A model generated the notes under the pieces. The model saw only the letters and a program-made list of their open reading frames with translations. It had not been told where the DNA came from and did not search any database. Positions 23,862 through 60,817 of a stretch of 64,000 nucleotides of DNA are shown here, piece after piece (positions within the stretch are counted from its first letter, which is position 1; each line of letters begins with the position of its first letter). The stretch lies in the NCBI GenBank assembly GCA_964558715.1, contig CAZLFD010000003.1:2312-66311 (forward strand), read 5' to 3'. Origin of the DNA: an uncultured Candidatus Peribacteria bacterium (GTDB taxonomy: Bacteria; Patescibacteriota; Gracilibacteria; CAIRYL01; GCA-016699755). The position numbers and the translations under genes were made by a program.

Positions 23862-24896
23862 ATGCAACTCAATGATTTCGATTTCGAGCTTCCGCCGGAA
23901 CTCATCGCCCAAACCCCCACAAAAAGGCGCGAAGCCTCGCGCCTTTTGTGTGTCGATCGACAGACAAAAACACTTAAGCATAAGCAATTCAGCGATATTA
24001 CCGACACGTTCGCCAGCGGCGACATAATTGTCTTCAACCGCAGCAAAGTGATACCGGCACGGCTACAGCTAGAGGGAAAACGCGAGATTTTTTTGAGTGA
24101 ACCGATGACAGAACACACCTGGAAGTGCCTTGTGCGCCCTGGGAAAAAATTTCCCGTCGGCGCGCAAGTAGAGTTTGCCGACGGTTCAAAAGCCAAAGTA
24201 CAAGAGATTGCAGATGATGGACTGCGTGCTATTTCTTTTTCACCAGCGAGTGGCGACTTCTGGCAGTTTCTGCAAGCGAATGGGAGTACTCCGCTGCCAC
24301 CCTATATCAGCCGCCAAGCGGAAGAAGTTGATTCTGAGCGCTACCAGACCGTGTATGCAGAAACCTTAGGTTCGGTAGCCGCCCCGACCGCCGGCCTGCA
24401 CTTTACCGATGAGATTATCGAACTACTCAAAAAGAAGGGGGTGCAAATCGAATTCGTTACGTTGCATGTCGGCCTCGGTACATTTCTTCCGGTAAAGGCA
24501 GAAAATATCACGGAGCACCAGATGCATGCCGAAATCTTTGAGTTGGATGAGGCAACTGCCGAGCGCATCAATGCCGCCAAAGCGGCAGGGGGAAAAATTA
24601 CCGCTATCGGCAGCACAAGCCTGCGGGTGCTGGAATCTTGCGCGGATGCATCGGGAAAATTGCGAGCACAAAGCGGTAAAACGGACATCTTCATCTACCC
24701 GCCTGCGGAGTTTGCAGTAGTCGACCATTTCTTCACCAATTTCCACTTACCAAAAAGCACGCTGCTCATGTTGGTGGCTGCCTTTGTCAGCCCGGGCAAA
24801 ACAGATGGCGTGGAATTTGTGCAGGAGGTATACCAAACCGCAATACAAGAAAAATACCGCTTTTTCAGTTATGGCGATGCGACACTGTGGTGGTAA
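23862..24896 (+). CDS. queA: S-adenosylmethionine:tRNA ribosyltransferase-isomerase
   Basis: MQLNDFDFELPPELIAQTPTKRREASRLL..., TPLPPYI, VAAPTAGLHFT, YRFFSYGDA; 344 aa, full length. Confidence 0.95.
   Translation: MQLNDFDFELPPELIAQTPTKRREASRLLCVDRQTKTLKHKQFSDITDTFASGDIIVFNRSKVIPARLQLEGKREIFLSEPMTEHTWKCLVRPGKKFPVGAQVEFADGSKAKVQEIADDGLRAISFSPASGDFWQFLQANGSTPLPPYISRQAEEVDSERYQTVYAETLGSVAAPTAGLHFTDEIIELLKKKGVQIEFVTLHVGLGTFLPVKAENITEHQMHAEIFELDEATAERINAAKAAGGKITAIGSTSLRVLESCADASGKLRAQSGKTDIFIYPPAEFAVVDHFFTNFHLPKSTLLMLVAAFVSPGKTDGVEFVQEVYQTAIQEKYRFFSYGDATLWW
24482..24896 (+). repeat. Direct repeat copy 1 (3-prime 415 bp of queA)
   Basis: Matches 27149-27563 at a constant offset of 2667 bp. Mismatches seen at 24490/27157 and 24891/27558. 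Translations in three frames are identical between the copies. Confidence 0.9.
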
Positions 24897-25534
24897 CAAG
24901 TGACAGGTTGTAAATCACAAGTTGCAAGAATTACCTTGCTCACGGATACCTGATCAGATTTCCTGTTTGGGCTCGAAATGGTAATGGTTTAGAAAAACAG
25001 ACGCTGCCATAATAAAGTGTTCCGTTTCGAAGCAATAGTCTTCCTTTACCGAAGTTTGTTCAAGTGTTAATCAGGAAAAATATGAAGCGAGATATATCGG
25101 TGAAGAAAAAGAGTATTATCCATCTTCACCTACCAGATGGGTATCGATGTGAAAGATCCAATTGTATTCAGGATACTTCTAATCCATTCTTTTCGATGCA
25201 TCGACCACTGCACCGAGCCCATCCAGCACATTGCGCGTACTTATCGTAGACAGAAAGCCCTTCACGATTTTCAGACACTCTCCCAGAGTCTGGCCGGCCT
25301 CTACATGAACAGGGTATCATTAACGTTCGCGTGTATGCGATGTTTGCTGGCCGTATAATAACGTCGACAAGCGTTTCAGCAGCCGAAAATATGGGTGCAG
25401 TGAAGAAGCAAGGCGACTGCACGAAACCGCATAAACTTTGGCGATTTTTAACATAGCTATTGCTTATCTGCTTTTCTGGGAGGCCAGAATTGCTTCAACT
25501 GATTTCTCTGAATGAATACTTTGCTTTCATAATT

Positions 25535-26770
25535 TTAATGGCGCACATCAAACTTCGCCCTCTTCAAATACCAGCGCAAAGCCAATGGATGGAAGACGAG
25601 CGAGAAGAAAATAATCACAAAGGCCGCACACAGGAACATCTCACGATGCGGATAATCCTCGGGCAATAACAGCAAAAGTAAGATCGAAAACGCGCCTTTT
25701 AATCCCCCCAGATTCAGTACATGCTGCCAGCTCTGCGGCACTTGCTGCGAACGCGCATTCAGCAACAGACAGCCACCATACACCACAAAAGCCCGCGCCA
25801 TCAGCAGCGCAAGAGGAATGAGAACAATATACCATCCGATCGGAAAATGGTGCGCGCCGATACCCACTCCCAGCAAAAAGAACAAGATGCTGTTGAACAG
25901 AAAACTAAGGTATTTCCAAAAATCGTCGTACAGATGTGATTCACAATTTTTCAGTACGTTTTCGGTACTGCTAAAAGCAATAGCAGCGGCCAACACCGTA
26001 ACGACACCGGACACATGTAAAAAATGTTCGCCCACCACAAACGCCAGATAGGCGATGACCAAGGTGAAGGTGGTTTCCGTAAATTCGTTTTCATTCCAAT
26101 AATCAAGTACTTTCGCTGCCAGCCAACCAAGCAGAATCCCCAGCGGAATCGCGCCCGCGAGCGACCACACAAAATGTAATACCACTTCGCTCGCACTGAG
26201 CGATGACACGCCATTGAGCAAGGTCATGCTTAGAATGGAGAAGAGCACCAGCACGGTCGCATCGTTGAAAAGAGATTCACCCTCGATGAGCACTTTCAGT
26301 TTTTTGGGCACTTCAAAGCGAGTGAATATCGACCCTACCGACACCGGATCGGTGGCAGAGACGATTACGCCAAAAAGCAGGGCATGGATGAGACCTACCT
26401 GCAAAATAGGCATGGTAGTGGCACCAAGAATAATCGCGCTGACAATCATCCCGACAAAGGCAAAAAAGGCAATTGGCGCGGATTCGCTTTGCAGGCGGCG
26501 CAGGTCGATGCGCCGTGCGGAATCGAAGATCAGCACCGGCAAAAAGACAAAAAATACTACTTCAGGTAAGATTTTCAGCTCGGGCAATGGTGGAATAAAG
26601 TTCGTGCGCGTGAGCGAATACCCTACACCCAAGATTAAGATCCAAGTTTCTAACGGTAAGAGCCTGCCCTCAAAATAGTGCTTAAGCATTGAGATGACAA
26701 TGAAAAACAGGCATAAGCCGCCGATAAGTTGGATGAGAAGGATCTCCATTTTTGTATCATTAGTGTACAC
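25535..26770 (-). CDS. Na+/H+ (cation:proton) antiporter, CPA1/NhaP type
   Basis: 411 aa polytopic membrane protein with LFGVIVSATDPVSV and ESLFNDATVLVLF, the signature segments of Na_H_Exchanger proteins. Confidence 0.85.
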   Translation of the reverse strand: MYTNDTKMEILLIQLIGGLCLFFIVISMLKHYFEGRLLPLETWILILGVGYSLTRTNFIPPLPELKILPEVVFFVFLPVLIFDSARRIDLRRLQSESAPIAFFAFVGMIVSAIILGATTMPILQVGLIHALLFGVIVSATDPVSVGSIFTRFEVPKKLKVLIEGESLFNDATVLVLFSILSMTLLNGVSSLSASEVVLHFVWSLAGAIPLGILLGWLAAKVLDYWNENEFTETTFTLVIAYLAFVVGEHFLHVSGVVTVLAAAIAFSSTENVLKNCESHLYDDFWKYLSFLFNSILFFLLGVGIGAHHFPIGWYIVLIPLALLMARAFVVYGGCLLLNARSQQVPQSWQHVLNLGGLKGAFSILLLLLLPEDYPHREMFLCAAFVIIFFSLVFHPLALRWYLKRAKFDVRH

Positions 26771-27148
26771 AGAACATATTGATTGCGGTAGTAACTCAGG
26801 TAGCGAAAATTACTTTGCTCACGAGTTCCGGTTGAGGGCTACTGTCTTAAATGCGAATATAATTATACGAATGCTATCCTAACCAAATTCAATTTATAAT
26901 TGATTTACCTGCAATTGCATGTACCTTCCTTCTGAATCACTACCGCCTGAAATTCAGCATCATCCGCAAAATAGCGCTATCGGGCTGGTCATATTCCAGT
27001 AATGACACTGAAATAAGTGGACGATTTCATGAGCAAGATTGCGGACTTGCGCATTGGAAGCCAAGTAGACTGAACACTTGGGTCGAAACACATTGGCCCT
27101 TCGTCCCCGGTATCAAAACCGAGGAGCTTATGAAAAGTGGCATCCGGT

Positions 27149-27563
27149 ATTTCTTCTGGTAAAGGCAGAAAATATCACGGAGCACCAGATGCATGCCGAA
27201 ATCTTTGAGTTGGATGAGGCAACTGCCGAGCGCATCAATGCCGCCAAAGCGGCAGGGGGAAAAATTACCGCTATCGGCAGCACAAGCCTGCGGGTGCTGG
27301 AATCTTGCGCGGATGCATCGGGAAAATTGCGAGCACAAAGCGGTAAAACGGACATCTTCATCTACCCGCCTGCGGAGTTTGCAGTAGTCGACCATTTCTT
27401 CACCAATTTCCACTTACCAAAAAGCACGCTGCTCATGTTGGTGGCTGCCTTTGTCAGCCCGGGCAAAACAGATGGCGTGGAATTTGTGCAGGAGGTATAC
27501 CAAACCGCAATACAAGAAAAATACCGCTTTTTCAGTTATGGCGATGCGACACTGTGGCGGTAA
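27149..27563 (+). pseudogene. Truncated second copy of the queA 3-prime end (direct repeat copy 2)
   Basis: Encodes ...VKAENITEHQMHAEIFELDEAT...YRFFSYGDATLWR, identical to queA residues about 208-344 except the last codon (W to R). It lacks the N-terminal 60 percent of the gene. Confidence 0.9.
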
Positions 27564-27570
27564 TCTCGTA

Positions 27571-28122
27571 CTAGGGTCTTGGCATTGCGGCAGCCCCAAC
27601 AGCCCGGGTAGGCGACGGATCTGGTCCTGAAAAACTTGGGTAGAAATCTAGAATCTCGGGGAGAGTCACTTTTACAAGCTTTTTTAAGCGATTGGATAAT
27701 TGACTTTTGAGTATTAATGGGTGAAGAGTTTTGTCTGACAAGCGTAAATCACGCTCGATGGCATCACAAGCTACCACCAGTTTCTGGTTAACTTCGTTCA
27801 AGGTACGCCCAATCCTTATCTGGCTCCCTGGATTATGGTACGCATCTTCAAACTTTGGCATTGCGCAGTTTATGAATGTACGGAATATCTCCTCAACAAT
27901 TACCCTATGCTCCTCTGCCAAATCTGTCAGTTGTAATTGGTATTGCGGACTTCGATCAAGAATCGTATCAGCCCACCCCTGAACCTGAAAATCAATATAT
28001 TCTCTCAATGCCTCTACTGCCAATCTTGTACCCTTTGTGCATTTTGTAAACTGACCGGCAGCATTTCTGCAGCTTCTAAGCTGAGAGGGAGCGATTCTGA
28101 TGGGGGTGTTCCTCAATCTCAA
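27571..28122 (-). CDS. Hypothetical protein (183 aa, TTG start in the track)
   Basis: An ORF with ordinary amino-acid composition, co-directional with uvrB, ending 8 bp from the queA-prime stop. No motif recognised. Confidence 0.5.
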   Translation of the reverse strand: MRLRNTPIRIAPSQLRSCRNAAGQFTKCTKGTRLAVEALREYIDFQVQGWADTILDRSPQYQLQLTDLAEEHRVIVEEIFRTFINCAMPKFEDAYHNPGSQIRIGRTLNEVNQKLVVACDAIERDLRLSDKTLHPLILKSQLSNRLKKLVKVTLPEILDFYPSFSGPDPSPTRAVGAAAMPRP

Positions 28123-28203
28123 ATGTAACGCACGGCATACGCTCTGTCATTCTTTTTAAAAAAAAGTTGTATAATCTATAATAAGATACTGGTGTTTTAT
28201 CAA

Positions 28204-30443
<2,240 letters not shown>

Positions 30444-33262: not shown

Positions 33263-34930
33263 CTACAAAATACGCTCGGCTGTTTCTCGCAACAGTACAA
33301 GCCGAATGTCGTCATACGAGACCTGCTCTTTTAGCTCACGGTAGATCGCACTAGAACGGATGCCGCCTTTTTCCGTTTGCTCCTCTGGCAGATTGCGCCG
33401 CCGCACCGCATCTTTAGCAGATAGTACACGTTTGCACAGCTCTTCATCTGGCAGCAAGTGTGCGATCGGAAAGTCGACTGCACCATGTTCGAGAAGTTGC
33501 TCGAGATGCGAGGCGATAGTGCCGACTTTCAGCTCGCGCTCGGCAGCGGCATCTGAAAGTGATAGTCCTTTTGCTAGAAGTTGCCGGGTGATTTCGGTGG
33601 TCGCGACTTTTTCTTTTTTCTGCTGTTGCACTTCGGTGAGCGGGGGATATTTCTCAGTTAGTGGACGATTCGCCAGCTCGGCTTCTGCCTGCCGAGACTG
33701 CCGTTGCAAATCGGCATCTGCTTGCAGAACGGTTTTATCCACGAGAAGCGCTGTTTCGTTTAGCCCGAGTAATCGCAGACCGGCTAGATCTTTCACGCGT
33801 GAGAGTGCCACATAACCGTGCCCGGGATCAAATGCCTTGCTCAAGTCGACTTCTGCCGCATCCAGGGTCATCCCCTGGCTTTTGTGCACGGTAATCGCCC
33901 ACGCCAGCCGCAATGGAATCTGTTCGATACTGGCTAGCTTTTTGCCGCGTTCGTCCACCATGCTCCATTCTTCTGGAAACACCAAAATCTCACTGCCAGT
34001 CGTGGTTTTAATAATGGGGAGTCCCGTATCATCATCAAAGCCGAGTACTTCACCCAAAGTGCCATTTACATATCCCTGCTCAAAATTATTTTTGATAAAC
34101 ATTACAAAGGCTCCTTTTTTCAGTTCTAGTTCTTCAGTAACCAAACTGTTTTGCAGCATTTTTTCCGCAATCACTGGGTTCCCTCTGAGTGTGGCCGAAA
34201 AAGCATGTTCTGTATCTAGAAGGTTATTGAGTTCTTCGCTATTGATACGATCGACATCAACGTTGTGGGTAAACAGGCGCGTGGGGCGCACAGTTGCGGG
34301 GAGTGGATGCTGAAAACGGCTTTGGAGCACAGAGTAGGATTCTTCTGACACTTCACCCTTACGCAAATCATCAAGCAGACGAACAAGTGCGCTATCACTA
34401 TGGCGATGCCGCTCAGAGAGGTAACACACCGTAGGACTGAGGCGCTGCCAAGTTACGGTTTGCCAGACAAAACGGCCGTCGGCAGGAAAGTCGCCGATCG
34501 GCGGCAACTGGAAAAAATCTCCGGTCAAGACAACTTGGATGCCGCCAAACGGTTCGGTGCTAAAGCGGATGTTGCGGAGCAACGCATCGACACTTTCAAA
34601 TAGCCCTGGCGTCAACATCGAAACTTCATCGATGATCAGTACTCTTGTCTTCTCGAAGCGTGTACGCAAATATGATTTCGAGAGGATTTTTTCGATAACG
34701 TGTTCATCTATCGCGTCACGTACACCCATGCCCGACCACGAGTGTAGGGTAGTTCCGCCGATGTGGGTGGCGGCAATGCCGGTGGGCGCGGTAATGGCGA
34801 CCGGCACATCGCGCTCGCGCAGATAACCGATAAAGCGGTTGAGCAGATGGGTTTTGCCCGAACCCGGCGCGCCGGTCAAAAAAACATTTGCGCCAGAAGC
34901 GAGGATTTTAGCAGCAGTTACCTGTTTCAT
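33263..34930 (-). CDS. PIF1/RecD-like ATP-dependent DNA helicase with a C-terminal HTH domain
   Basis: Walker A FLTGAPGSGKTHLL, APTGIAATHIGGTTLHSW, LIIDEVSM, ITVHKSQGMTLD, and a C-terminal helical HTH-like tail. Confidence 0.85.
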   Translation of the reverse strand: MKQVTAAKILASGANVFLTGAPGSGKTHLLNRFIGYLRERDVPVAITAPTGIAATHIGGTTLHSWSGMGVRDAIDEHVIEKILSKSYLRTRFEKTRVLIIDEVSMLTPGLFESVDALLRNIRFSTEPFGGIQVVLTGDFFQLPPIGDFPADGRFVWQTVTWQRLSPTVCYLSERHRHSDSALVRLLDDLRKGEVSEESYSVLQSRFQHPLPATVRPTRLFTHNVDVDRINSEELNNLLDTEHAFSATLRGNPVIAEKMLQNSLVTEELELKKGAFVMFIKNNFEQGYVNGTLGEVLGFDDDTGLPIIKTTTGSEILVFPEEWSMVDERGKKLASIEQIPLRLAWAITVHKSQGMTLDAAEVDLSKAFDPGHGYVALSRVKDLAGLRLLGLNETALLVDKTVLQADADLQRQSRQAEAELANRPLTEKYPPLTEVQQQKKEKVATTEITRQLLAKGLSLSDAAAERELKVGTIASHLEQLLEHGAVDFPIAHLLPDEELCKRVLSAKDAVRRRNLPEEQTEKGGIRSSAIYRELKEQVSYDDIRLVLLRETAERIL

Positions 34931-57099: not shown

Positions 57100-57174
57100 T
57101 GGTTGCGGGGGTGGGAATCGAACCCACGACCTACGGGTTATGAGCCCGTCGAGCTACCACTGCTCCACCCCGCG
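57100..57174 (-). tRNA. Initiator tRNA-Met (anticodon CAT), CCA encoded
   Basis: The reverse complement reads CGCGGGG-TG-GAGCAGTGGTAGCTC-G-ACGGG-CTCATAA-CCCGT-AGGTC-GTGGG-TTCGATT-CCCAC-CCCCGCA-ACCA. The C1:A72 mismatch and three G:C pairs closing the anticodon stem are initiator hallmarks. Confidence 0.93.
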
Positions 57175-58213: not shown

Positions 58214-58975
58214 CTACTGATTCATTTCAACTTTTTGAAACACAAACAAGTGCTCGTGCATGATGAGCAAGAAGTTATGTTCTTTGCTCTTCTTTTCCCA
58301 AAAACCGGTGGCTTTACAATTGTGCTGATGCTTGATGATATCTTCTTTTAACAGGAATCCGGCCTTCAAAAAGCGATCCATGACTTTATATGCCAAAGGC
58401 TGATACATTTTTTTTCTGCGTGTATCACCCATTAGAATTGCGCAAAACTGGCCATTCTTGAGTACACGGTATAATTCTGCAGCAACTTTCTCCATTTCGT
58501 CACAGAATTCATCGAGATTATTGATGCCGGACAGGTCTTGAGCAATTTCCCCCTCACTATACTTAATAATATCCGCGTATGGCGGATGAGTGAGAGCAAA
58601 ATCAATACTAGCATCTTCAATAAAACTAAGATCGCGCGCATCATTCAAATGAAATTCTTGCTTGCTCGGTGTTTTAAAATCGAACTCCAACGACTTCTGC
58701 GATCGTTCAATTGCCCCCGGATTAATATCACAAGCGATTAGGTTTCTGTGAAGAAGCTTGGCTTCTATCGCCGTTGTGCCACCGCCCACCATTGGGTCCA
58801 GTAAGGTATCGCCCTGTTTCGAATATCTGAGTACAAGATTGCGTACAACTTCCGGTGCCCAGTTCCCACGCCAATCAGATTTATGTGTGGCCCAGTTCCC
58901 ACGCCGTCGAAAGCTCCACACAGTAGTACATTCTTGGTCAAACTCTGGCGGGTTCAAGGATTTTGGATCTTTCAT
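58214..58975 (-). CDS. SAM-dependent DNA methyltransferase (N6-adenine/N4-cytosine type), second methylase of the R-M cassette
   Basis: SAM-binding LLDPMVGGGTTAIEA precedes the catalytic (D/N/T)PPY-type motif ALTHPPYADII, a motif order unlike the beta-class DpnA. Lies 4 nt downstream of the endonuclease gene. Confidence 0.72.
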   Translation of the reverse strand: MKDPKSLNPPEFDQECTTVWSFRRRGNWATHKSDWRGNWAPEVVRNLVLRYSKQGDTLLDPMVGGGTTAIEAKLLHRNLIACDINPGAIERSQKSLEFDFKTPSKQEFHLNDARDLSFIEDASIDFALTHPPYADIIKYSEGEIAQDLSGINNLDEFCDEMEKVAAELYRVLKNGQFCAILMGDTRRKKMYQPLAYKVMDRFLKAGFLLKEDIIKHQHNCKATGFWEKKSKEHNFLLIMHEHLFVFQKVEMNQ

Positions 58976-58978
58976 GAT

Positions 58979-59851
58979 TTAGAAAATATAGCCCAGTACT
59001 CCATTTTCCATATCGGCAAGGTTAAACACATAATCGTTATGATTATAAGTTTCCTCCAGCGAATTTCTGGAAGTTAGCCAGCCCTTTCCGTCTGTTATCC
59101 ATACGAAATCGATATCTTGGCGCTTTAGCTCATCATATAAACTACGAAATTCGCCGCACACTGCTTTAAGCTTTGAGCCGCCACCATTGTAAAAATTGGT
59201 TTCAACTAAAGTTAATTTACCTTCATCATTACCGGGCTTCCAGACTGCAAAATCAAAACTTCTTTCAGATTTATCAATCTCAACAACTATGCCCCACCTG
59301 GTCTGAATCATGGTCGGCGTTGCCTGTGCGAGATATTCACACCCACCGGTCGCACAAAATTCTTTTAAGTACTTTTCGACAATGTTTTCCATTATCTTTC
59401 CACCTCGATTCTTTCTGCCATTACTGTCTAGACCCACTTCAACGCCAAATACATAATCAACCAGGTTCTTTACACCGTCTTCCTTAAACAATCTATGTAA
59501 GCCAGACTTCTCAATAAATTCATAACACTTTTTACTCGTGTCTTCCGAATATGTAATTAGCTCCCCAAAGTCGAAAAATTCAGAACTTCTGTCTTCGTAA
59601 TCAAAAATTTCGAGTTGGTCTTCTCGCGTAGCAACTAACACTGGAATAGCACGAATAATATCCGGCTCTTGTCTAAAGAGACGATCGAACTCAGCCTGCA
59701 AATCATCTTTTCCTAGCAGGTAATTTAACTTGTTCAGGGTTATTTCCATTCTCGCCTTATTTTCAAAGACCTTGTTCCAATCCACAAAATACTCCCAAGT
59801 TTTAATTGAGTCTTTCAGGGTAGCCATGAGGTTGCTAAAATTTTTATCCAT
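58979..59851 (-). CDS. Type II restriction endonuclease, DpnII/MboI family (GATC)
   Basis: Strong recalled similarity to R.DpnII: NLVDYVFGVEVGLDSNGRKNRGGKIMENIVEKYL, VETNFYNGGGSKL, FVWITDGKGW. The 290 aa length matches the family. Confidence 0.9.
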   Translation of the reverse strand: MDKNFSNLMATLKDSIKTWEYFVDWNKVFENKARMEITLNKLNYLLGKDDLQAEFDRLFRQEPDIIRAIPVLVATREDQLEIFDYEDRSSEFFDFGELITYSEDTSKKCYEFIEKSGLHRLFKEDGVKNLVDYVFGVEVGLDSNGRKNRGGKIMENIVEKYLKEFCATGGCEYLAQATPTMIQTRWGIVVEIDKSERSFDFAVWKPGNDEGKLTLVETNFYNGGGSKLKAVCGEFRSLYDELKRQDIDFVWITDGKGWLTSRNSLEETYNHNDYVFNLADMENGVLGYIF

Positions 59852-59866
59852 TAGCTTGTTTGATAT

Positions 59867-60817
59867 TTAAACATAGTTGTATACAACAATCTCTGAAACC
59901 TTCCCTCGCTTACTGGCAGCCGAATTTACTGCTCTACCGGCATAAACCGTGTGAATTTTGGCACCATCAATTTCAGAGTATATTTTTCGAATAAATGGCG
60001 TATCTGAATTAGATAACATTACAAAACAACCTTTCTTATGGAGCTTATTGAATGTATCTCGTAATTCAATTTGTTCTTTCTCTAAAAACCCGCCCGCAGT
60101 ATAGCTAGTGAAGCTTGATGTTTTATTAACGGGGTAATACGGCGGATCGAAATACACAAAGTCGCCCTTATTAGCATGCTTCAAAACATCTTTGTAATCA
60201 CGCTTCGCAATCTGTACGTTCTTTAAAAGCTGATGCACATTTCTGAGATTCACTTCATCGCAAATAACTGGGTTATTATATCTACCAAAAGGCACATTAA
60301 ATTCACCTTTTGAATTCACACGATATAAGCCATTAAACCCAGTTCTGTTTAAATAAATAAAGCGCGCAGCAATTTCTACCTTTGACAGATTCTGTGGCTG
60401 TTTGGCTCGCACCGAAAGATAGTACTCTTTCTCGTACTTGTGCTTTTTGAGGCTTTTGATTAATTCCTCCGGACACTCTTTGATCACTTGATAGGTAGTG
60501 ATGAGTTCTTCGTTCACATCCGACAAAACTGCGTTGTAGGGCTGGATATCAAAGAATACAGCACCACCACCGACAAACGGTTCAAAGTAAGTATTATTTT
60601 CAATATCAAACTTGTCTGGCAAGGGATATAGCTTTTGGTATTGGGCTAGTAATTGCCGCTTGCCACCAACCCATTTAATAAAGGGCTTGGCTTTCGCAAT
60701 AGGGCTTGTTGTCAAAAAATTTTCTACCTCATGTACCAAATCTGCAAAAAAACCCCGCTTTCTCCAGCTCGCCACCTTTATCTTGGGAAATCGCTGAAGC
60801 AAGGCATCCGTAGTCAT
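59867..60817 (-). CDS. Dam-family DNA adenine methyltransferase (M.DpnII/M.MboIA-like)
   Basis: KPFIKWVGGKRQLL, FEPFVGGGAVFF (SAM binding), YFDPPYYPV (DPPY catalytic motif). Confidence 0.9.
   Translation of the reverse strand: MTTDALLQRFPKIKVASWRKRGFFADLVHEVENFLTTSPIAKAKPFIKWVGGKRQLLAQYQKLYPLPDKFDIENNTYFEPFVGGGAVFFDIQPYNAVLSDVNEELITTYQVIKECPEELIKSLKKHKYEKEYYLSVRAKQPQNLSKVEIAARFIYLNRTGFNGLYRVNSKGEFNVPFGRYNNPVICDEVNLRNVHQLLKNVQIAKRDYKDVLKHANKGDFVYFDPPYYPVNKTSSFTSYTAGGFLEKEQIELRDTFNKLHKKGCFVMLSNSDTPFIRKIYSEIDGAKIHTVYAGRAVNSAASKRGKVSEIVVYNYV

Follow-up and report, generated by a model that had tools for sequence, protein, structure and literature searches.

A 415-bp duplication of the queA 3' end beside an NhaP-type antiporter gene in an uncultured Peribacteria genome

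The queA-uvrB region and its direct repeat

In a stretch of 64,000 nucleotides from an uncultured Candidatus Peribacteria bacterium (contig CAZLFD010000003.1 of assembly GCA_964558715.1; the whole stretch is called the window below), the gene queA, encoding the tRNA preQ1(34) S-adenosylmethionine ribosyltransferase-isomerase, and the gene uvrB are separated by approximately 3.3 kb of DNA holding a CPA1/NhaP-type antiporter gene (nhaP), a second copy of the queA 3' end, and three long non-coding stretches (Table 1). The host is a member of a Peribacteria/Gracilibacteria-like lineage of the candidate phyla radiation (CPR)/Patescibacteria with the standard genetic code, and the proteins nearest to its QueA (72-76% identical) come from Candidatus Gracilibacteria and Candidatus Peribacteria. 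An earlier reading of the window from its sequence (the original prediction) had described a near-identical direct repeat of 415 bp at an offset of 2667 bp with two mismatches, and a direct, gap-free comparison of the native queA end (R1) with the displaced copy (R2) confirmed this description, with 413 of the 415 positions identical. A whole-window scan identified R1 and R2 as the sole long repeat in the 64 kb.

The identity between R1 and R2 stops abruptly at both ends, and the right boundary coincides with the final base of the queA TAA stop codon. Scores for anchored extension past the repeat ends did not stand out from those of random window pairs (p = 0.15 on the left and p = 0.36 on the right), and searches with tblastn and blastn revealed no more queA sequence upstream of R2; R2, predicted to be a 3' fragment of queA, comprises residues 208-344 only. 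The first mismatch (C at 24490, T at 27157) changes codon 210 from CCG to CTG (P210L in R2), and the second (T at 24891, C at 27558) changes the last codon from TGG to CGG (W344R in R2), so that the prediction was right about the last codon and the other mismatch also changes a residue. In an alignment of QueA with 11 homologs, Pro210 was nearly invariant and the C-terminal Trp was the majority state; R1 keeps the residues conserved in these homologs, and both differences are changed alleles in R2. The two differences lie 9 nt and 6 nt from the ends of R2, and the chance that two random substitutions would fall so near to the ends can be estimated at about (18/415)^2 = 0.002.

The queA gene itself is full-length. 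Pfam PF02547 covers model positions 1-321 of 322, the NCBIfam equivalog model scores 449.8 bits against a cut-off of 324, and the protein aligns end to end with the 11 homologs, retaining P210 and the C-terminal WW. These data agree with the original prediction that the first copy completes an intact queA, and show that R1 remains the functional end of the gene. R2, which the gene caller reports as an open reading frame (ORF) of 124 amino acids at 27189-27563, we infer to be a non-functional relic, and this 'QueA' call should be annotated as a pseudogene fragment.

An intact nhaP on the opposite strand, which had also been predicted to lie between the repeats, was supported by the Pfam match and by matches to NCBIfam CPA1 models, with scores under the equivalog cut-offs of the latter. 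An in-frame GTG at 26770 offers an alternative start that would give a product of 411 amino acids. The best outside homolog is 45% identical, and the two nearest homologs (45% and 44% identity) lie in unrelated neighbourhoods; the GC content (0.487) and synonymous-codon score (-1.185) of nhaP are inside the range of the window genes. The minus strand encodes nhaP and uvrB and also has an orphan open frame in the spacer between R2 and uvrB. The queA fragment R2 therefore lies antisense between uvrB and nhaP.

The orphan frame comprises 183 codons and stays open to about 28150 (~190 codons). The first 87 of the 183 codons include no ATG, and the codon-usage score of the frame was the worst among the window ORFs scored. 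It had no Pfam, NCBIfam or PHROGs match, an exhaustive HMMER search returned one marginal match among 1.8 billion representative proteins, and none of six start positions tried gave a product present in the protein collection. Its length is unlikely by chance (our own estimate is ~1%), and the frame may represent an orphan gene or one that has recently died; it looks non-functional or unique.

Remnants of genes and mobile elements were sought by scanning all ORFs of at least 43 amino acids with Pfam, and by translated-frame scans in which Pfam covered the 638-bp spacer in full (six frames) and four frames of the 640-bp spacer, and PHROGs covered the 399-bp stretch in full (six frames) together with three frames of the 638-bp and one frame of the 640-bp spacer, so that the two jointly cover all three non-coding stretches. 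No integrase, excisionase, transposase, replication protein, or phage or plasmid family was detected in these scans, in agreement with the predicted absence of an integrase. The 'decayed coding remnants' of the original prediction were not confirmed: the 638-, 399- and 640-bp stretches gave no significant protein-family or relative-genome match, and tblastx of these stretches against 1.4 Mb of queA neighbourhoods returned self matches only. Rfam at a permissive threshold found no match in 24700-28300, and inverted repeats were absent at the ends of the cargo (the 2252 bp between R1 and R2) and of R2. A sub-threshold AP2-like match was seen at ~25342-25431 on the plus strand (E = 7.8e-4, with a score of 20 bits where the cut-off is 33). 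It falls in an open stretch of 37 codons with the '...YGCSEEARRLHETA' motif, and it was unsupported by PHROGs. AP2 domains are found in homing endonucleases and some integrases.

Table 1. Features of the window and the independently assembled contigs matching it (positions are those of the window).
Feature	Position	Strand	Remarks
queA, 344 amino acids	23862-24896	+	Pfam PF02547, NCBIfam
R1 (repeat copy 1)	24482-24896	+	native queA 3' end through TAA stop; conserved alleles at both variable sites
Spacer, 638 bp	24897-25534		non-coding; between the convergent queA and nhaP stops
CPA1/NhaP-type Na+(K+)/H+ antiporter (nhaP)	25535-26749	-	404 amino acids from ATG 26749; PF00999, E 2.6e-51
Region upstream of nhaP, 399 bp	26750-27148		ends at R2 junction; no ORF or family match
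CGGTA, left of R2 bracket	27145-27149	+	sequence reading
R2 (repeat copy 2)	27149-27563	+	queA 3' fragment, residues 208-344, with P210L and W344R
CGGTA, right of R2 bracket	27558-27562	+	present solely through T->C at 27558
Spacer, 640 bp	27564-28203		R2 to uvrB stop; contains orphan open frame 27571-28122 (-)
uvrB	28204-30339	-	Pfam UvrB domains
Contig L091	to 24520		SRR7048221, 25.6-kb contig; upstream genes
Contig L092	to 24520		SRR7048222; upstream genes
Contig L006	24861-27187		SRR7048221; R1 end with T allele, whole cargo, R2 start with T allele
Contig L007	25091-27187		SRR7048222
Contig L008	27158-30400		SRR7048222; R2 into uvrB side
LTD (lamin-tail) domain protein, 1676 amino acids	16733-21763	+	upstream of tRNA-Leu/L25/DUF3048/queA
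PIF1-like helicase	33263-34930	-	C-terminal HTH_40 domain
tRNA-Met	57100-57174		
N6/N4 methylase	58214-58975	-	DpnII-type (GATC) cluster, 58214-60817
DpnII endonuclease	58979-59851	-	same cluster; E 2e-93
Dam-like D12 methylase	59867-60817	-	same cluster

Independent assemblies and related genomes

The proteins of the window itself occur in the public protein collection, under an NCBI record for a contig of 68,007 bp. The structure was checked independently in Logan contigs (k = 31) from the runs SRR7048221 and SRR7048222; a search for publications on these accessions gave none. Five contigs were 100% identical to the window and break where 31-mers become common to both repeat copies; L091 and L092, which carry the upstream genes, both end 30 nt beyond the first variable site. 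Across the two runs, each of the four paths that hold a junction was matched at 100% identity, and no competing branch was seen at the cargo ends in the contigs. The reads of SRR7048221 and of SRR7048222 therefore contain both novel junctions, and the cargo occurs once, in the read graphs as in the window. These data largely exclude the mis-join that had been considered in the original prediction as an alternative; the recent tandem duplication proposed beside it is excluded, since just 415 of the 2667 bp are repeated and not the whole unit.

In SRR7048222, L008 runs past the second variable site into the uvrB side, and the cargo contig L007 starts at 25091. This late start suggests lower or broken coverage of the path from the R1 end into the cargo in that run, which could be trivial or could be a hint of population heterogeneity.

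The best long relative (GCA_041738935.1; L001 = L009) is collinear with the window on both sides of the locus, with the shared order LTD protein, tRNA-Leu, L25, DUF3048, queA, uvrB, tRNA-His, iron-dependent repressor, and a 253-amino-acid ORF. The block with the LTD protein is conserved in this relative and in a second one (L004), with LTD proteins of 1406-1434 amino acids. The predicted insert is lacking in the closest relative, in which 142 bp separate the convergent genes queA and uvrB (UvrB shares 85% amino acid identity), compared to 638, 399 and 640 bp of non-coding DNA around the single gene nhaP in the window. More distant relatives keep the order L25-DUF3048-queA and have different genes downstream, and the 3' flank of queA is for this reason a synteny breakpoint. 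As judged by sequence comparison, the ~3.3 kb between queA and uvrB are lineage-specific.

The arrangement was not found to be common to all relatives with diverged copies, a pattern that had been named as speaking against integration: no second queA fragment was present within 10 kb in any of 86 other queA loci. Likewise, no nhaP homolog was present near queA in any fetched queA locus. Alignment of the 142-bp queA-uvrB spacer of the closest relative with the three non-coding stretches was no better than with shuffled sequence, this relative being too distant for its intergenic DNA to be aligned. Searches of JGI metagenomes for exact words from the start of the spacer and the end of the cargo gave no matches, and no conspecific sequence was found outside the two runs.

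Origin of the second queA copy

The favoured reading, to which a probability of roughly 0.45 was assigned, is that R2 arose when the queA tail was copied, by way of microhomology, into a spacer already present between nhaP and uvrB, in a recent chromosomal duplication. In the proposed sequence of events, the NhaP-type gene with its long non-coding flanks would already have lain between queA and uvrB, and the cargo end would have been joined to the spacer at the junction GCATCCGGTAATCTCGTAC. A break or stalled fork would then have arisen in this spacer, at the site ...ATC-CGGTA-ATCTCG..., leaving a free 3' end with ...ATCCGGTA, which would have paired with the CGGTA of queA just upstream of 24482 and copied queA to its stop codon, and a return via the microhomology GGTAA would have brought the new strand back to the original site, CGGTAA-TCTCG. 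The outcome would be the observed ~410-bp queA patch between CGGTA repeats, with small errors beside both joints, namely a 2-nt skip (CA), a C->T change at +9 and a T->C change at -6; of these, the skip and the C->T change do not follow from the proposed path itself and would be errors made near the joints.

Several observations are consistent with this reading. The CGGTA motifs bracket R2 with a simulated p of ~0.023, CGGTA (24476-24480) and GGTAA (24892-24896) mark the limits of the source segment in queA with a simulated p of ~0.057, and a gapped reading of the left R2 joint gives a 2-nt gap. R2 itself as the inserted piece would fit the confinement of both changed alleles to this copy, their location at its ends and the 5-bp bracket. 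Error-prone synthesis near template-switch joints is known from eukaryotes. Furthermore, because the GC content and codon usage of nhaP are host-like, the gene need not be as recent as the repeat, and because the closest relative has queA and uvrB 142 bp apart, two events, namely an earlier insertion of a 2.9-kb block and one patch, may explain all of the locus. The junction obtained by removing the patch in silico showed no folding structure above that of shuffled sequences.

It should be noted, however, that several points weigh against a patch. The microhomology motifs were spotted after the fact and the statistics are modest; the 'CA' expected after the left CGGTA is absent in the product; gene conversion between the copies would likewise confine differences to the edges, whatever their origin; and the pre-insertion allele was not found, either in the exact-word scans of JGI metagenomes or in the spacer alignment with the nearest relative. 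In addition, the record for templated insertions of ~400 bp over a distance of 2 kb is good in eukaryotes and poor in bacteria, and the literature found on them is mostly eukaryotic.

Among known systems, the closest in form are fork stalling and template switching/microhomology-mediated break-induced replication (FoSTeS/MMBIR), copying of the synthesis-dependent strand annealing type, and copying associated with microhomology-mediated end joining (MMEJ), in which, as with R2, a nearby segment (here 2.2 kb away) is copied in cis to a new site. Events of the FoSTeS/MMBIR type share with R2 the 4-5-nt microhomologies at source and target and the substitutions or indel within 10 nt of the joints, but they have been documented mainly in eukaryotes. 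Template switching and templated insertion are treated in related literature (PMC5120786, PMC6902434), and bacterial repair of the MMEJ type exists (bioRxiv 10.1101/2022.03.14.484287); no described precedent for a 410-bp patch in a CPR bacterium was found in the literature. Homology-facilitated illegitimate recombination and merodiploids (PMC3240628, PMC3784515) are also related, in that DNA can come to lie by an anchor through the combination of a homologous with an illegitimate joint, and competence-driven events can create partial duplications. However, the classical form of the former gives an insertion-deletion and not an anchor duplication, and merodiploids form between repeats that already exist and involve the duplication of large regions, unlike the arrangement at queA.

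The strongest competitor of the patch, though a less probable one, is the integration of a circular element by a Campbell-type event, as put forward in the original prediction. A 2667-bp circle, composed of a 415-bp queA 3' segment and 2252 bp with nhaP, and derived from a conspecific donor or an earlier excision, would have entered by a single homologous crossover in queA, leaving an intact queA, the cargo, and a 3' fragment displaced next to the original downstream DNA. The topology is exactly that of single-crossover integration, with the target fragment in direct orientation and the gene restored; the end of the repeat at the queA stop is expected if donor and recipient diverge from there; the closest relative has no nhaP at this site; and the de Bruijn graph has a cycle from the repeat core through the cargo and back to the core, as a circle would give. 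The locus thus resembles laboratory insertion-duplication with suicide plasmids, in which the target fragment is duplicated around the insert and the gene stays intact when the fragment reaches the stop, but it differs from such events in having no vector, replicon or marker, a cargo made up of a host-like gene and non-coding DNA, and differences located at the ends of one copy. Moreover, a circle would require more events (gain of the cargo beside queA in a donor, illegitimate closure of a circle in mid-gene, transfer, and crossover), the 640-bp spacer would need a separate origin, and no replication or recombination gene was found in the Pfam and PHROGs scans. The location of both differences at the ends of R2 would also go unexplained, since its right end would be an old native junction, and so would the CGGTA bracket. 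The anatomy given in the original prediction (intact queA, dead 3' fragment, NhaP-type gene, no integrase) was upheld, but integration of a circle is not the best fit, because there is no recombinase, the site is unused elsewhere, the antiporter is host-like, and the differences and CGGTA motifs sit at the ends of R2.

Considerably less probable is an old duplication, of either origin, that has been homogenised by gene conversion from the selected queA, so that the outermost bases alone have diverged. Four hundred identical bases with one difference within 10 nt of each edge are what conversion with edge escape would leave, and nhaP looks compositionally ameliorated; nevertheless, no graded decay of similarity was seen outside the boundaries, the arrangement was found in no relative, and direct repeats of 415 bp at a distance of 2.25 kb should be prone to deletion over long periods.

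Somewhat less credible still is an artefact of phasing, in which a single queA is followed directly by 27564 onward, and the cargo with a queA fragment belongs to a separate circular or amplified molecule or to a co-occurring strain. Graphs with k = 31 do not phase the 401 identical bp, and one queA with a separate circle of repeat and cargo gives the same graph; with the variable sites 401 bp apart, neither the circular form nor the empty site has a unique 31-mer, and the graphs of both runs fit either phasing equally. As assembled, however, the complete queA holds both conserved residues and the relic both changes, whereas the alternative phase would leave each molecule with one conserved residue changed, and this allele pattern, read from the sequence, argues for the assembled phase. 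Furthermore, a circle of 2.7 kb would be unable to maintain itself in the absence of a replication gene, and both novel junctions were found in two runs with no competing branches at the cargo ends.

Least probable of all is a decayed site-specific integrative element (an island or prophage) that inserted at the queA 3' end and brought a replacement 3' end, with R1 and R2 as attL and attR: the duplication of a gene 3' end as direct repeats around DNA that the nearest relative lacks is the classic footprint of islands and prophages in the 3' ends of tRNA or protein genes, decayed genes are suggested by the ~1.7 kb of unusually long non-coding DNA that surrounds nhaP, given that such a genome is normally compact, and the weak AP2-like match would fit, but no integrase, excisionase, or phage or plasmid family is present, the AP2-like match is below threshold and absent from PHROGs, a repeat of 415 bp at 99.5% identity is much longer and cleaner than the usual att repeats of tens of bp, the cargo measures 2.25 kb, nhaP has a host-like composition, and the site is not reused at any of the 86 other queA loci. 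A transposon or insertion sequence was ruled out, as there is neither a transposase nor terminal inverted repeats. The locus looks like a one-off repair or recombination scar and not like a mobile element.

Other genes of the window and consequences of the repeat

Elsewhere in the window, a DpnII-type (GATC) restriction-modification cluster on the minus strand lies ~1 kb from tRNA-Met and has a GC content of 39-43%, compared to ~49% for the window, which indicates that it was probably acquired horizontally. A PIF1-like helicase with a C-terminal HTH_40 domain is also encoded on the minus strand.

Direct repeats of 415 bp at a distance of 2.25 kb are a substrate for homologous recombination, by which nhaP could be deleted or released as a 2667-bp circle. 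After a deletion between the repeats queA would still be intact, and the product would escape detection by short k-mers. The repeat thus makes nhaP unstable and its presence or absence a potential polymorphism.

Two possibilities, independent of each other, are raised as distinctly speculative. The first is that nhaP is an integrase-free, homology-driven cassette; if so, RecA-type recombination would free an nhaP circle and restore a clean queA, and the circle would re-enter competent conspecifics by a crossover in queA. CPR bacteria have few classical mobile elements, and such a cassette would be a minimal route of gene shuffling for them. The second is that R2 couples the expression of queA and nhaP by antisense; if so, the queA mRNA would have a complementary stretch of 415 nt in read-through transcripts or in the leader transcripts of nhaP. 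No minus-strand sigma-70-like site was found between R2 and nhaP (26750-27148), and several were found upstream of R2, which is weak evidence; given this distribution, it may be speculated that nhaP transcripts hold 415 nt antisense to queA.

The locus represents a clean, read-supported case of gene-fragment duplication, a known kind of event, in the streamlined genome of an uncultured CPR bacterium, and it places a lineage-specific cation/proton antiporter at the synteny breakpoint between queA and uvrB. If the signatures at the joints of R2 hold, they would document templated repair mediated by microhomology in a group about whose DNA-repair biology almost nothing has been learnt.

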